The translations under genes and the position numbers were made by a program. Of a stretch of DNA of 64,000 bases, positions 7,247-22,864 are shown one piece after another. Positions within the stretch are counted from its first letter, which is position 1. Every line of letters starts with the position of its first letter. Under the pieces are notes generated by a model that did no database searches, was not told the DNA's origin, and worked only from the letters and a program-made list of their open reading frames with translations. This DNA is from Desulfobulbaceae bacterium DB1 (GTDB lineage: Bacteria; Desulfobacterota; Desulfobulbia; Desulfobulbales; SURF-16): positions 448,225 to 512,224 of the forward strand of contig MQUF01000003.1 of NCBI GenBank assembly GCA_001914235.1. Reading direction: 5' to 3'.

Positions 7247-7903
7247 CTACTCACCGTAATAAGCCGCAGCCAGATCCCGTCCGAGCTTCCTGAGAGCCGC
7301 CACGGTTTCCGGATTTTGCTCCAGGGTGTTTATGCCCACGTTCTCCGCCGCGGCATCCGGGCCGTGAATCATCTTGACGCCTGAAACCCGGCATTGGCTG
7401 CCGCTTTTGCATTTAACGCAGGGCACATTCCCAAGCACGGAAACTCCCCCCACGTAACGCATCCCCTCCTCCATCATACAAAACCGAATGGCCTGAAGGC
7501 CGTTTTCACCGGCGGGCGGCATGCCTTCCCTGCCCGGCGGAACAGCGCAGGTGACAACCGCGGCTCCCGGCTTGCCGGCCATCAACCCATGGCGATGCCG
7601 CAGGGCATAAAGCCGCTCCATGAAGGCCTTGGTGCGACTGTCCAGCGAGGAATACGGCGTATAGCCGCCGACAATGACAATATCCGCCTTGAATGCCTTT
7701 TCCGCCAGCATGACACCATCATCAGCAATGATGCAACGATTGGTTTTTACACAGCCCAGGCAGGCATTGCAGGGACTTATCGTATAATCGCTCAGCTTAT
7801 AAAACCACTGTTTGCCGGCCATGGTTGCCTCCATGACCATCCTGACCGCGCGATCCGTGTTACTGTTTTTGACGGGTGATCCTGATATTCCGAGCACTAT
7901 CAT
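7247..7903 (-). CDS. Iron-sulfur flavoprotein / NADPH-dependent FMN reductase family
   Basis: MIVLGISGSPVKNSNT flavodoxin-like N-terminus and a compact CNACLGCVKTNRC (CxxCxxCx5C) cluster motif. The start is trimmed to ATG 7903. Confidence 0.8.
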   Translation of the reverse strand: MIVLGISGSPVKNSNTDRAVRMVMEATMAGKQWFYKLSDYTISPCNACLGCVKTNRCIIADDGVMLAEKAFKADIVIVGGYTPYSSLDSRTKAFMERLYALRHRHGLMAGKPGAAVVTCAVPPGREGMPPAGENGLQAIRFCMMEEGMRYVGGVSVLGNVPCVKCKSGSQCRVSGVKMIHGPDAAAENVGINTLEQNPETVAALRKLGRDLAAAYYGE

Positions 7904-7956
7904 ACTGACACTCCGTGAGGGGAAAAAAGATTGAACCAGGGGTATTTCCAATAAAT

Positions 7957-7971
7957 GGCGGAGAGGGTGGC
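7957..7971 (-). repeat. Distal att-like copy of the tRNA-Ser 3' end
   Basis: Exact 15-nt match to 9184-9198 in the same orientation. It is intergenic, upstream of the trimmed flavoprotein start. Confidence 0.7.
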
Positions 7972-8187
7972 TGTCCAATCCGCAGCGCAACACCTTTAAA
8001 TTAATGCATTTTTATGTTTTGTTTAAAATTTCTACCCGTTATCCTACCCGTTTGTGTCGCCGGTGAATGGGTTGACCTTATTCGCTCTTTCCATACCAAC
8101 GGTTATTTTTTCACGCAAGAACTTTATCCAAAGATGCGGGAAGCAGAAAGGGTCTGCACTGAATGCAGGCCCTTTTGAGTAGTAAAA

Positions 8188-8715
8188 TCATGCGGGGCAA
8201 AAATCCGGAAAGGCGTTCAGCCACTCTTGCGGATTGAACTCAAGCCCCCTCGCCCGTTTGATCTTTTTCCTTTTGGCGGGAAGTTCCTTGAACATATCCA
8301 GGACACCGCCGCAAATCATGTGCTGTGCCTGCTCCGAAGCATACATCATATAGACGGACCGGAAAAGCCGGTCGTGGGCCTCGCCTATTTCCTTTTTCCC
8401 GTTCTCCCATCGCGAAACGGTCGCGGCGGTCACGCCAAGCAGAGCCGCCAATTCTTTGGCTTTCAAGTGCAAATCCTTTCGTAAAAATTTTATCTCTTCA
8501 GGTTGCAGCAGTGCTTTTCTCTTCTGGCAGATATACGCGCCTATGAGCCTATGCAGTTTTTGCATCTTCGGGATTGAGGCGTATCCTTCACCGCATGACG
8601 GGCAAGAATATTGCGTTATGCCGTGCAAGACGACATCAAGCCCGCACTCCTCGTAATGGTATGGCTTGTCTTTAATTACCTTTAGTTCCCCGCCGCATGA
8701 GTAGCATTTATTCAT
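8188..8715 (-). CDS. MqsA/YgiT-type antitoxin (Zn-ribbon plus XRE-family HTH)
   Basis: N-terminal CYSCGG..CPSCGE zinc ribbon, then an HTH (LKAKELAALLGVTAATVSRWENGK). The start lies 12 nt downstream of the toxin-like gene's stop. Confidence 0.8.
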   Translation of the reverse strand: MNKCYSCGGELKVIKDKPYHYEECGLDVVLHGITQYSCPSCGEGYASIPKMQKLHRLIGAYICQKRKALLQPEEIKFLRKDLHLKAKELAALLGVTAATVSRWENGKKEIGEAHDRLFRSVYMMYASEQAQHMICGGVLDMFKELPAKRKKIKRARGLEFNPQEWLNAFPDFCPA

Positions 8716-8727
8716 CGTGTCCGCCTT

Positions 8728-9033
8728 TCAGCCCAAAACGGTTATTATGGCGCAAGCCTGACGGCTGACAATGACAGTAACAACTCCGCCCTCGTCGCCT
8801 TCAAGATCATCGCCTTTTATCGTGTAGGCCCAACTGTGTGTCGTATCTTTCAATTCCTTTCTCGTAATTTTCCCCCGCGTCAAGATATGCTCAACATCCT
8901 GCATTGAATATCGGCGCTCTATCATCCTTTTCTTGGCGTGGCTACTGACAATAACCTCGCCGCCGGAAACAATATCCCGGATGATGGAGTGTGCTTTTTC
9001 GTTGTCGATTTCTTCTGCCGGGTTGAATGTCAT
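8728..9033 (-). CDS. DUF4258-like toxin component
   Basis: 101 aa. SHAKKRMIERRYSMQDVEHILTRGKI is characteristic of the DUF4258 family. The longer track ORF (to 9363) was trimmed because it runs through the tRNA gene. Confidence 0.7.
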   Translation of the reverse strand: MTFNPAEEIDNEKAHSIIRDIVSGGEVIVSSHAKKRMIERRYSMQDVEHILTRGKITRKELKDTTHSWAYTIKGDDLEGDEGGVVTVIVSRQACAIITVLG

Positions 9034-9113
9034 ATTCCCATAATAAACAAAAAGTTGACTTTGGCGCAAGTTTTTTGCGTTTGAGCTAATGGCTTTCTTC
9101 GGACTGCACAGGA

Positions 9114-9150
9114 AACAAAAAACCCGCTTTCCTTTTCTGGAAGCGGGTTT
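9114..9150 (-). terminator. Intrinsic terminator downstream of tRNA-Ser
   Basis: On the minus strand: AACCCGCTTCC-AGAAAA-GGAAAGCGGGTT followed by a T-run. Confidence 0.65.
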
Positions 9151-9183
9151 CTGTGTGTTGCTGGGTCTTGTTGGATGCTGATT

Positions 9184-9273
9184 TGGCGGAGAGGGTGGGA
9201 TTTGAACCCACGGTACCCTCACGGGTACACCGGATTTCGAATCCGGCTCATTCGGCCGCTCTGACACCTCTCC
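9184..9273 (-). tRNA. tRNA-Ser (anticodon CGA), class II with long variable arm, CCA encoded
   Basis: Reverse complement is GGAGAGGTGTCAGAGCGGCCGAATGAGCCGGATTCGAAATCCGGTGTACCCGTGAGGGTACCGTGGGTTCAAATCCCACCCTCTCCGCCA. It has a 7-bp acceptor stem, anticodon stem CCGGA/TCCGG with loop TTCGAAA, and T-arm GTGGG-TTCAAAT-CCCAC. Confidence 0.92.
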
Positions 9274-9546
9274 ATTGACCGGGGGCGCCGCCCTGCGGAT
9301 TGGTTCAACCATTGCTGAGCACCATCCGCAATGCAACTCTTCCGACACGCCCGTTTCCTCCATGATTAAAACAAATCCGCCTGAAAAACAACATGCATTA
9401 ACGATCCGCCGGTGAAAAAATTCAAATCAGGGGCAAGAAAAAAAGCAAACCCGTGCGGATATTTCCTGAATTGTCCGAGCAAATAAGGTATTCTCCCACC
9501 AATATAAAAAAACCGGCCGGATCGTCACTTCTCATACCGTAAAAAC

Positions 9547-22000: not shown

Positions 22001-22447
22001 ATGTGGACACGGTGGAATGACATTGATCGCATGTTTACTGCCATGGATCTGCTGCAATCCAGAATGAACCGGATTTTCCCTGATTACGACAGATTCCGGG
22101 TAATGCCGGCCGGCTGGGGCGTGACGGAAAGCGGACCCAGGACAAATCTCTACGATGCCGGTGACCATTTTGAAGTCAAGGTCGAAGTTGCGGGTCTTGC
22201 CAAAGAGGACCTCAACATCAAGATTCAGGGCAACTATCTTGAGATAAGCGGCACCAGAAAAGCGGATGCGCCGGAAGGATACACCGCCCACCGGGTGGAA
22301 CGTGGCACCACGTCCTTCACCCGCAGTTTCACCCTGCCTGCGGATGTCAATGCGGACAAGGTGAAGGCAACGCTGCTGAATGGACTGCTGACTCTGGCAT
22401 TACCGAAATCAGAGGCGGCAAAACCGAAACAGATCACCGTCAACTGA
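22001..22447 (+). CDS. Hsp20/alpha-crystallin small heat-shock protein
   Basis: AGGAGG RBS. Alpha-crystallin domain (FEVKVEVAGLAKEDLNIKIQGNYLEISG..FTRSFTLP..GLLTLALPK). Confidence 0.9.
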   Translation: MWTRWNDIDRMFTAMDLLQSRMNRIFPDYDRFRVMPAGWGVTESGPRTNLYDAGDHFEVKVEVAGLAKEDLNIKIQGNYLEISGTRKADAPEGYTAHRVERGTTSFTRSFTLPADVNADKVKATLLNGLLTLALPKSEAAKPKQITVN

Positions 22448-22477: not shown

Positions 22478-22864
22478 ATGACCGATAGAAACGATATTGT
22501 GAAAAGAGAAGAAACCATGCCGGAAAGAAGCCGTGAGTTGCCGGCAGTTGTGCCTCTTGTCGACATATATGAAAATGAGGATGAAATTCTGCTTTACGCC
22601 GATATGCCGGGCGTGGAAAAAAACAACATCACCATCAATATAGAAAACGGCAAACTCGCCCTCTCCGCCATCCGCAAAATTACGGCAAGCGGCGCTGCGG
22701 GCTGGGAGGAGTTCAGCGACGTGGAGTATCAACGAACCTTTTCCGTGCCCCAGGCCATTGATGTCGGCAAAGTCAATGCGGAATTAAAAGACGGCGTCCT
22801 GCGTCTCCACCTGCCGAAATCAGAGGCGGCAAAACCGCGGCAGATCGAAATAAAAGCCGGCTGA
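22478..22864 (+). CDS. Hsp20/alpha-crystallin small heat-shock protein (second paralogue)
   Basis: ILLYADMPGVEKNNITINIENGKLAL..YQRTFSVP..GVLRLHLPKSEAAKPRQIEI. Confidence 0.9.
   Translation: MTDRNDIVKREETMPERSRELPAVVPLVDIYENEDEILLYADMPGVEKNNITINIENGKLALSAIRKITASGAAGWEEFSDVEYQRTFSVPQAIDVGKVNAELKDGVLRLHLPKSEAAKPRQIEIKAG

Follow-up and report, generated by a model that had tools for sequence, protein, structure and literature searches.

The last nucleotides of the tRNA-Ser(CGA) gene of Desulfobulbaceae bacterium DB1 occur a second time close by, with a lone toxin-antitoxin (TA) operon between the two copies, which raises the question of how this small islet came to lie behind a tRNA gene. The analysis was performed on a stretch of 64,000 nucleotides (GenBank assembly GCA_001914235.1, contig MQUF01000003.1, positions 448,225 to 512,224), hereafter referred to as the window. 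The locus comprises the following features:

7247-7903, minus strand: host FMN-reductase-family gene, native neighbour of the tRNA 3' end, outside the islet (Pfam PF03358)
7956-7970, minus strand: distal copy of the 15-bp core, i.e. the displaced tRNA 3' end, attR side (repeat search; BLAST against L005; alignment)
7971-8187, minus strand: distal non-coding arm, 217 nt, 41.9% GC
8188-8715, minus strand: intact antitoxin gene, 175 aa, MqsA family (Pfam PF15731; TIGR03830; PDB 3gn5)
8728-9033, minus strand: intact toxin gene, 101 aa, DUF4258 family (Pfam PF14076)
9040-9077, minus strand: putative TA promoter/operator (from sequence)
9078-9183, minus strand: tRNA-proximal non-coding arm, absent from the relatives with an empty site and homologous to the arm of L122
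9184-9198, minus strand: proximal core copy (15 bp), reading CCACCCTCTCCGCCA in the sense of the tRNA, the final 15 nt of tRNA-Ser
9184-9273, minus strand: intact tRNA-Ser(CGA) gene with encoded CCA, the integration target, attL side (ARAGORN; Rfam RF00005)

The sequence TGGCGGAGAGGGTGG is present in exactly two copies on the plus strand, at 7956-7970 and 9184-9198, separated by 1,228 nt from start to start. Since tRNA-Ser(CGA), recognized by its Rfam model with 55.6 bits (gathering score 29), was placed at 9184-9273 of the minus strand, the 15-mer constitutes the last 15 nt of the tRNA, and is composed of 4 nt of the T-stem, the 7 nt of the acceptor stem, the discriminator G and CCA. The bases bordering the two copies differ on both sides, so the repeat is exactly 15 nt long. 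The original prediction had reported this exact recurrence, with the second copy on the 3' side of the tRNA and in the same orientation, and both points hold; only its placement of the distal copy at 7957-7971 was one base off. No further copy was found in the window or in the 10 kb past its left end (two copies per 74 kb), the nearest other match, at 22656-22670, having two mismatches. Near-identical tRNA-Ser genes occupy the syntenic position in nine relatives, and each of these genomes carries a single copy of the 15-mer, inside the tRNA. These counts rule out a dispersed repeat, an origin that the original prediction had named as fatal to its proposal.

The sites that correspond to the islet in related genomes were then compared. 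In eight related Desulfobulbaceae species (loci L005, L006, L007, L008, L009, L010, L013 and L035), tRNA-Ser(CGA) is directly followed by the FMN-reductase gene. These are the empty sites that the original prediction had proposed to look for; the relatives lack the TA pair at this position, so the second outcome named as fatal, its presence in all of them, does not apply either. Homology with L005, the closest of them, begins at window position 7970, the first base of the distal 15-mer, as determined by BLAST and alignment; native chromosomal sequence restarts right after the distal core, and every downstream native base has been kept. The resumption of homology at this base, together with the eight empty sites, therefore identifies the islet as a real site-specific insertion. 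Read in the tRNA sense, the attB junction of an empty site would be ...GGGTTCAAATCCCACCCTCTCCGCCATTTATTGGAAATACCCCTGG.... When the FMN-reductase and hydrolase proteins were looked up by exact match, at most the source contig itself came back, and thus no empty site from the same species. Locus L004, considered as a candidate for a larger island at the same tRNA, carries regulators and FtsH downstream of the gene; it lacks both an integrase and a repeat, and was therefore regarded as a rearrangement.

These data bear on the alternative that the 15-mer recurs by chance and that the TA pair is ancestral and was lost from the relatives by ordinary deletion. Such repeats do arise: 9 direct repeats of 15 nt or more, all exact, were counted in the window, compared to 2.7 in shuffled sequences, so the argument of the original prediction, that an exact 15-mer would not recur by chance in 64 kb, was overstated for any 15-mer. 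It stands for the anchored event, since a copy of the tRNA terminus on the same strand and on the 3' side has a chance expectation of ~1.4e-5. Moreover, each of the eight relatives would need a deletion ending exactly at both copies, and the GC content of the islet (47.7%; ~42% in the arms) is below that of the flanking genes (~57%). We give this explanation practically no credence, as it is already contradicted by the base-precise empty sites.

The islet between the 15-mers comprises 1,213 bp and contains only two real genes, encoding the DUF4258 protein and the MqsA-family protein; other ORFs do not exceed 54 aa. It is built of the tRNA terminator, the intact toxin/antitoxin operon and two AT-rich non-coding arms, which confirms the gene content originally described for it, integrase absence included. 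The tRNA-proximal arm contains a strong bidirectional terminator hairpin (9120-9150), at which transcription of the tRNA is predicted to end. DNA conservation among homologous cassettes begins at ~9077, the upstream limit of the putative TA promoter, for which -35 (TTGCGC) and -10 (TATTAT) hexamers with an 18-nt spacer are predicted in the minus sense. The putative operator includes an imperfect palindrome (9052-9072; AAGTTG-N9-CAACTT in homologues), and the promoter/operator motif is also present upstream of the toxin gene in L122 and L124. The distal arm carries a hairpin after the antitoxin stop codon (8148-8174), a tandem duplication of CTACCCGTT on the plus strand (8032-8040 and 8044-8052) an AT-rich stretch and, adjoining the core, CTGCGGATTGG at 7975-7985 of the minus strand. 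A search of its 217 nt for a hidden gene or RNA yielded short ORFs only and no Rfam match, and its sequence was found at no other locus.

The islet is recombinase-free, and no transposase domain was found in it either. With four diverse tyrosine recombinases as phmmer queries, a search of low sensitivity, no recombinase was detected among the ORFs of the 64-kb window; the search scope for an integrase was these 64 kb plus 10 kb containing one degenerate-looking recombinase-like gene. The latter (L003 7628-8728, outside the window and ~11 kb away) encodes a fusion of a recombinase domain with Mop-TOBE, in which the catalytic motif is degenerate. A larger island extending to this gene was considered and rejected: the intervening genes are housekeeping genes, syntenic in L005, and no further copy of the tRNA end is present there. 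An integron cassette was considered as well, by folding and by Rfam. The overall fold of the distal arm, after the antitoxin gene, is unremarkable (z = -0.71), and Rfam matched the tRNA only, with no structured element after the antitoxin gene beyond the short hairpin. A direct repeat derived from a tRNA is unlike what integron cassette insertion leaves.

The toxin matches PF14076 with 41.6 bits (cut-off 25) over profile positions 2-69 of 71. No match was obtained for it in NCBIfam, PADLOC or PDB sequences, and in Pfam it belongs to DUF4258 only, not to MqsR. The DUF4258 family has the BECR fold of the RelE/ParE superfamily, and its pairing with MqsA, fusions included, has already been catalogued (PMC11980606). 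On the basis of sequence, the toxin is thus assigned to the DUF4258 family of the RelE/ParE (BECR-fold) superfamily, paired with an MqsA-type antitoxin. The antitoxin scored 53 bits against PF15731 (cut-off 30), 86.4 bits against TIGR03830 (cut-off 61.8) and E = 1.3e-4 against MqsA of PDB entry 3gn5. It combines a zinc ribbon (CxxC...CxxC) at the N-terminus, an XRE helix-turn-helix (HTH) and an extension of 55 aa at the C-terminus. PADLOC, queried for membership of a defence system, returned generic HTH matches only. In comparisons with L122 and L123, dN/dS was 0.14-0.17 for the toxin and 0.04-0.06 for the antitoxin, i.e. the TA pair is under strong purifying selection.

Homologous TA cassettes were found on the 3' side of tRNA genes of six species (tRNA-Ser, -Ala, -Asn, -His, -Leu and -Arg). 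This placement was observed in 7 of ~15 informative contexts, and the 5' side of an adjacent tRNA in none. L122 represents the same islet at tRNA-Ser in a second lineage, from another sample. The two tRNA-Ser islets share 80% nucleotide identity, with dS values of 1.77 (antitoxin) and 0.71 (toxin), which indicates that they are old. At tRNA-Asn (L075), the displaced tRNA end lies 1,308 nt downstream and is exact over 10 nt (20 of 23 with extension), while at tRNA-Leu (L071) it is a 78-nt pseudo-tRNA. The order in L071 is tRNA-Leu, a HigB-like/HTH (putative HigBA-type) islet, pseudo-tRNA-Leu and the DUF4258/MqsA pair. No duplicated tRNA end was detected at the tRNA-His, tRNA-Arg or tRNA-Ala cassettes, the contig of the last being too short to judge. 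The toxin gene is frameshifted in L075, and L071 and L073 gave truncated toxin matches, so erosion appears to be visible in the homologous cassettes themselves. Islets at different tRNAs have no arms in common; the conserved module extends from the promoter to the stop codon, plus a TA terminator in one subclade.

An insertion made by neither a tyrosine nor a serine integrase, i.e. transposition with a long target-site duplication or homology-facilitated illegitimate recombination at the tRNA, would agree with the missing integrase gene, and transposition also leaves short direct repeats. However, the islet lacks the transposase and the inverted repeats at its two ends that a transposon or insertion sequence would have, and its repeat is anchored at the tRNA terminus and varies in length among the cases (15, 10-23 and 78 nt), unlike the product of a fixed staggered cut. 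Illegitimate recombination should cost the recipient some of its own DNA, by deletion or replacement, but here all native downstream bases are kept. We therefore regard a mechanism of this type as very improbable.

Integrases do occupy like sites elsewhere. In three viral contigs (L152, L176 and L187) a tyrosine integrase gene directly follows a tRNA-Ser(CGA) with the same 3' end, and in L157 a 29-nt attP-like copy of the tRNA-Ser end lies beside a P4-type integrase gene. In two of the empty-site relatives (L009 and L013), P4-type integrases are encoded 190-260 nt after the neighbouring tRNA-Ala(CGC), the same site at which homologous cassettes are also found. Together with the eight empty sites, these observations support the integration scar at the tRNA 3' end that was originally proposed. 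No parent element, combining an integrase and the DUF4258/MqsA family at a tRNA, was found in genome, metagenome or viral collections; the sole integrase-linked context of this family is a recombinase trio located away from any tRNA.

We consider the site-specific insertion at the tRNA-Ser 3' end to be, most likely, a larger island eroded down to its TA module. A small circular DNA with an attP bearing a 15-bp copy of the tRNA-Ser(CGA) 3' end would have recombined with the chromosomal tRNA gene in a conservative, site-specific reaction of the kind catalysed by tyrosine integrases, the crossover lying in the acceptor-stem/CCA segment. This would have regenerated a complete tRNA, now with the element-borne terminator behind it, and shifted the native 15 nt to the opposite end of the insert. 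After erosion of the tRNA-integrating island, the 1,213 bp left would be ~370 bp derived from the attP arms plus a single self-contained, probably autoregulated type II TA operon. The module may have survived because it is selfish or addictive and under strong purifying selection. We infer the type of recombinase, the history of erosion and the addictive behaviour of the TA pair from the sequence. As the islet encodes no recombinase, it would be non-autonomous, resembling a CIME (cis-mobilizable element). For a tRNA-targeting integrase, an identity block of 15 bp is short, and the arm-type sites are candidates only. [quoted passage not shown]

Alternatively, the islet could be a functional integrative cassette in miniature, in which attP and the TA operon form a circle of 1,228 bp. 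An integrase and excisionase acting in trans, from another part of the genome or from an incoming element, would move it, and the DUF4258/MqsA family would spread in this way among tRNA 3' ends. The two 15-bp cores are identical and intact and both arms are present, so that attL and attR appear to have been kept; the total length of the arms is about that expected of an attP, in which the tandem 9-mer could be an arm-type site. Two independent islets of nearly equal size (1,213 and ~1,300 bp), with this TA family as sole content, exist at different tRNAs, the second lineage (L122) has the islet and a homologous arm at tRNA-Ser, and P4-type integrases are present at the neighbouring tRNA in relatives. 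In addition, assembly breaks were seen at the tRNA/islet junction of L002 (30 nt inside the tRNA) and, in L122, 5 nt past the antitoxin stop codon, although such breaks are equally explained by co-occurring relatives with shared tRNA sequence. Against this, the arms differ between islets at different tRNAs, and the TA operon of the window, viewed relative to its tRNA, points the other way from that of L075, which favours independent elements over one type of cassette. The age of the tRNA-Ser islets does not suit such a cassette either, and no cognate integrase was found in the window. The junction of the circle, which would read ...GTTGGATGCTGATTTGGCGGAGAGGGTGGCTGTCCAATCCGCAGC... on the plus strand at attP, was not found in IMG/VR, nor were homologues of the TA pair. 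On balance, we find a working cassette possible but unlikely, and that such non-autonomous mini-elements (a TA operon with ~370 bp of att arms, moved between tRNA 3' ends by integrases in trans) form a distinct class is somewhat more doubtful.

A further possibility is that the islet was gained ready-made, by homologous recombination through its flanks after transformation or transduction, and that the duplication was generated once, in another lineage, with no integrase ever acting in this one. The anchors for such an exchange are conserved (82% nucleotide identity in the FMN-reductase gene, a nearly identical tRNA), the same islet exists in a second lineage (L122), and this route has been proposed for TA islets (PMC13617665). 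However, it accounts for spread only and not for the origin of the duplication, and the divergence of L122 is too great for a recent donor. We judge this route decidedly unlikely, and retain erosion of an integrated island as the preferred explanation.

Solitary TA islets are a common sight between core genes. As a rule they bear no sign of a mobile element, so their route of arrival is mostly obscure. The integration scar and the empty sites in eight relatives therefore document one concrete route of entry, which would be insertion of the integrase type at the 3' end of a tRNA gene and subsequent loss of all but the TA module. The presence of the antitoxin subfamily on the 3' side of six tRNA species provides a set of loci for testing two ideas, erosion to the addictive core and mobilization in trans of minimal att-plus-TA units. 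If the mini-element class were real, it would explain mechanistically how solitary TA islets colonize chromosomes.

As regards known systems, the TA pair resembles MqsR/MqsA of Escherichia coli in its antitoxin with a zinc ribbon and XRE HTH, in the toxin gene being first and in the palindrome in the promoter region. It differs in that the toxin is DUF4258 rather than MqsR, in the 55-aa C-terminal extension of the antitoxin and in the palindrome itself, which is unlike the MqsA operator.

The islet as a whole would be a clean example of an eroded mobile element of a known kind. Kobayashi and colleagues reportedly described restriction-modification gene complexes inserted "with long target duplication", the repeats being ~100 bp long and not tRNA-derived; these too are small post-segregational-killing units bounded by direct target repeats, but of another gene class. 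Solitary chromosomal TA islets such as ccdAB and parE/yiaG of E. coli (PMC7232551, PMC13617665) are likewise lone TA pairs between conserved genes, absent from relatives and without MGE signature genes, and toxin erosion is seen in homologues. The available text of those reports describes no junction signature, whereas the present islet keeps a base-precise att-type duplication.

Tyrosine (P4-type) integrase islands and prophages at tRNA and tmRNA genes, as collected by Islander (PMC4383910), share with this locus the intact, regenerated tRNA, the displaced direct 3' fragment and the empty site, and the element likewise brings the 3' end of the tRNA and a terminator. As in the "asymmetric 3' end" sublocation (10.1101/2020.11.02.365908), the identity block extends to the terminal CCA. 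Unlike such islands, the islet is far smaller, has an identity block of 15 bp only and contains no integrase gene, the hallmark that such tools demand; island finders requiring an integrase will miss islets of this kind.

A CIME is defined as a cis-mobilizable element that has kept attL and attR while its integration genes are gone (PMC5704250). The described CIMEs are several kb long and derive from streptococcal ICEs, and their mobilization by accretion has been demonstrated experimentally, whereas the 1.2-kb islet, a TA operon only, comes from a Desulfobulbaceae genome, and no parent element was found for it. The two have in common that the regenerated end of the target gene bounds one side and its displaced copy the other, here at a tRNA 3' end, and the lack of recombinase and transfer genes, as well as the tandem accretion of such units, seen at the homologous locus L071.

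The sequence TGGCGGAGAGGGTGG is present on the plus strand in two exact copies, at 7956-7970 and 9184-9198. The latter is the end of a complete tRNA-Ser(CGA) gene on the minus strand (9184-9273; identified by ARAGORN; Rfam score 55.6 bits, gathering score 29). The sequence of the repeat on the tRNA strand is CCACCCTCTCCGCCA; it takes in the final four T-stem bases, the acceptor stem's 3' strand, the discriminator base and the encoded CCA. Since the bases flanking both copies differ, the repeat is exactly 15 nt long. The displaced copy is found on the 3' side of the tRNA, in the same orientation and 1,228 nt from the tRNA copy, a geometry which agrees with the original prediction; the coordinates given there for this copy (7957-7971) were one base off. 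No further copies were identified in the window or in the 10 kb beyond its left end. A version with two mismatches (22656-22670, minus strand), located near an exact 24-nt direct repeat (22403-22426 and 22814-22837, 411 nt apart), which is the longest in the window, is probably due to chance.

The islet enclosed by the two copies (7971-9183; 1,213 bp) contains the following elements, listed in the tRNA direction:
106 nt, tRNA-proximal arm with a strong terminator hairpin (9120-9150)
9040-9077, putative promoter-like region with an imperfect palindrome, read from the sequence
8728-9033, minus strand, DUF4258 protein of 101 aa (Pfam PF14076, above cut-off)
8188-8715, minus strand, MqsA-family protein of 175 aa (Pfam PF15731, above cut-off; TIGR03830, 86.4 bits vs. 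a cut-off of 61.8; PDB MqsA, E = 1.3e-4)
217 nt, AT-rich distal arm with a hairpin just past the stop codon and tandem CTACCCGTT

All ORFs other than this toxin-antitoxin (TA) pair encode at most 54 aa, and the islet carries no recombinase gene. Thus, as had been proposed from the sequence, only the terminator and the DUF4258/MqsA pair separate the copies. The islet has a GC content of 47.7% (arms ∼42%), lower than that of its flanking genes (∼57%) or of the window as a whole (54%). The DUF4258 family has been placed in the RelE/ParE superfamily of BECR-fold proteins, with no assigned function, and pairs or fuses with MqsA-type antitoxins (PMC11980606); the toxin of the window had no sequence match in PDB, NCBIfam or PADLOC. 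An exact 11-mer, CTGCGGATTGG, occurs in the window only twice, in inverted orientation (7975-7988 and 9290-9303; 13/14 matches on extension). One copy is situated 4 nt inside the islet, beside the distal 15-mer, and the other 20 nt upstream of the tRNA 5' end, where the motif is partly kept in relatives lacking the TA pair; a 14-nt inverted repeat therefore brackets the tRNA and the islet. This may represent chance or a shared protein-binding site.

The tRNA gene is adjoined on its 5' side by an alpha/beta hydrolase gene, while past the islet on its 3' side are genes for an FMN-reductase-family protein, an RRM protein, a DEAD-box helicase and a cold-shock protein. The window sequence is included in JGI contig Ga0052186_10019194, and the same locus, with both 15-mers, was found at 99.7% identity in a second sample (Logan SRR28386961; contig L002).

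Species-representative genomes were scanned with the hydrolase, which yielded a dozen related Desulfobulbaceae and Desulfurivibrio-like MAGs (64-79% identity). The tRNA-Ser(CGA) gene adjoins the hydrolase gene in nine of them. In eight relatives (loci L005-L010, L013 and L035) the FMN-reductase gene directly follows the tRNA, 48-150 nt downstream; the TA pair, which might have been common to all relatives, is absent, and the 15-mer is single-copy. With no third copy in the window either, the 15-mer is not a dispersed repeat. The window sequence past the distal 15-mer aligns with the L005 sequence past the tRNA, and the BLAST alignment starts at 7970, the first base of the distal 15-mer. Therefore, none of the native DNA has been lost and the duplicated tRNA end marks the exact limits of the additional DNA; as read from these alignments, this is the hallmark of conservative site-specific integration. 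The predicted insertion into the tRNA 3' end is thereby supported, down to a base-precise junction. Chance recurrence of the 15-mer had been dismissed on the basis of its length. This does not hold for just any 15-mer, as the window contains 9 exact direct repeats of at least 15 nt vs. 2.7 in shuffles, but it does for one anchored at a tRNA terminus and recurring on the same strand and 3' side (expectation ∼1.4e-5), and the base-precise empty sites exclude chance.

Variation among the relatives extends to the region 5' of tRNA-Ser, with genes that do not occur in the window: an aldo/keto reductase in L007-L010 (∼8997-9989 in L007, L009 and L010), a HipA toxin in L006 (7932-9239) and in an ORF of equal length in L035 (2473-3780), and LigD with two Ku genes in L008 (2029-6154). 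Locus L004 was rejected as an island at tRNA-Ser (rearranged downstream region, no island features).

The 3' end of tRNA-Ser(CGA) is a real integrase target elsewhere. Its 28-nt terminus is present in 57 IMG/VR contigs, in three of which a tyrosine integrase gene begins right past the tRNA; one IMG/VR contig carries only a 29-nt partial, attP-like copy beside a P4-type integrase. P4-type integrases are also found 190-260 nt past tRNA-Ala(CGC) in two relatives, 2-3 kb from the tRNA-Ser site. This tRNA-Ala, which follows the hydrolase gene and is missing from the window and L005, is a hotspot in the relatives, with the following cargo:
L009, 12175-13395, P4-type integrase
L013, 9917-11209, P4-type integrase
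L004, 11708-12739, IS110 transposase
L010, 12554-14520, AAA_21/DUF4276 pair
L074, homologous TA cassette

Of the three crossover sublocations described in tRNA genes (anticodon loop, T-loop and asymmetric 3' end; 10.1101/2020.11.02.365908), the last fits the 15-bp block of the window, which extends from the 3' strand of the T-stem to CCA.

Desulfobulbaceae contain many homologues of the antitoxin, almost all with a length of 175 aa. DNA conservation among the cassettes extends from the promoter (∼9077) to the antitoxin stop codon (8185), excluding the arms. The cassette lies 3' of a tRNA gene in seven of ∼15 informative contexts, while by our rough estimate <1% of a genome is as near to a tRNA 3' end:
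Window, tRNA-Ser(CGA), duplicated end of 15 bp
L122, tRNA-Ser, homologous proximal arm
L074, tRNA-Ala(CGC), flank homology to relatives ends exactly at the tRNA end
L075, tRNA-Asn, displaced copy of the tRNA end
L123, tRNA-His, no duplicated end
L068/L071, tRNA-Leu, pseudo-tRNA of 78 nt in L071
L085, tRNA-Arg, no duplicated end

In L075, a CCA-anchored 10-nt copy (20/23 with extension) lies 1,308 nt downstream of tRNA-Asn and encloses the TA pair alone, while in L071 the pseudo-tRNA-Leu separates a HigB-like/HTH islet (putatively HigBA-type) from the DUF4258/MqsA pair. The window and L075 differ in TA orientation relative to the tRNA and their arms are unrelated, which favors independent elements that share the same cargo rather than one cassette moving between sites. 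The absence of terminal inverted repeats, the varying repeat length between cases and the retention of all target DNA argue against transposition or illegitimate recombination as the source of the insertion.

Other homologues either stand by themselves among housekeeping genes or adjoin a tyrosine recombinase trio with more TA pairs. In contigs L125-L129 (e.g., L125, 2262-5523), a more remote homologue of the TA pair (66% identity) lies directly past three tandem tyrosine recombinase genes (recombinase-in-trio), with Phd/ParE, HigB-like/HTH and TacA-type modules close by and priA adjacent; many contigs of this type end just upstream of the TA pair. Contig L002 breaks 30 nt into the tRNA (window 9213), coming from the islet side, and L122 begins 27 nt inside the tRNA and ends 5 nt past the antitoxin stop codon. 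These ends are assembly-graph branch points at cassette boundaries and may be due to the co-occurrence of relatives or to alternative contexts.

The dN/dS values, 0.04-0.06 for the antitoxin (against five homologues) and 0.14-0.17 for the toxin, indicate that the TA module is maintained by selection. The toxin gene is frameshifted in L075 (5059-5370) and gives partial or truncated matches in L071 and L073, with the antitoxin intact, i.e., the toxin erodes first. The L122 islet is an old copy, given its 80% nucleotide identity to that of the window and dS of 1.77 (antitoxin) and 0.71 (toxin); for comparison, dS is ∼0.8 between the FMN-reductase genes of the window and L005. Homologous recombination through the flanks might have spread a ready-made islet, but this would leave the duplication itself unexplained.

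The best-supported origin is the joining of a circular element to the tRNA gene by a tyrosine-type integrase. The element would have recombined with the chromosomal gene at a 15-bp attP/attB core, supplying a new tRNA 3' end and terminator, and its linked genes would later have been lost, leaving only the TA pair. No cognate integrase was detected among the window ORFs (phmmer, four diverse tyrosine recombinases as queries), no circle junction in IMG/VR, and no same-species empty site by exact look-up of the FMN-reductase and hydrolase proteins. The sole nearby recombinase-like gene lies outside the window, ∼1.2-2.3 kb left of position 1 (L003, the same contig, 7628-8728). It encodes a 366-aa fusion of a tyrosine-recombinase-like domain to two Mop/TOBE molybdate-binding domains and adjoins an ABC transporter. 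The fusion is degenerate, and with its box I arginine apparently replaced (TGAK), it may act in regulation instead of catalysing recombination. A Wadjet-type MksB/MksE/MksF and JetD set is located ∼4-9 kb past the left end of the window (L003, 1130-6444).

The islet is now non-autonomous and, as far as the sequence tells, might be either a dead remnant or still movable in trans. Its value lies in the preserved entry scar, which is normally missing from TA islets, and it points to a TA subfamily habitually found at tRNA 3' flanks. As an integrase-less islet bounded by att sites, with a TA module as its sole cargo, the locus belongs to a known kind, of which it is a clean and exceptionally small case. 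With att sites kept and integration genes presumably lost, it is like a cis-mobilizable element (CIME; PMC5704250), and it agrees with a published scenario for TA-only islets, namely the arrival of TA systems on mobile elements followed by loss of the genes linked to them (PMC13617665; PMC7232551).
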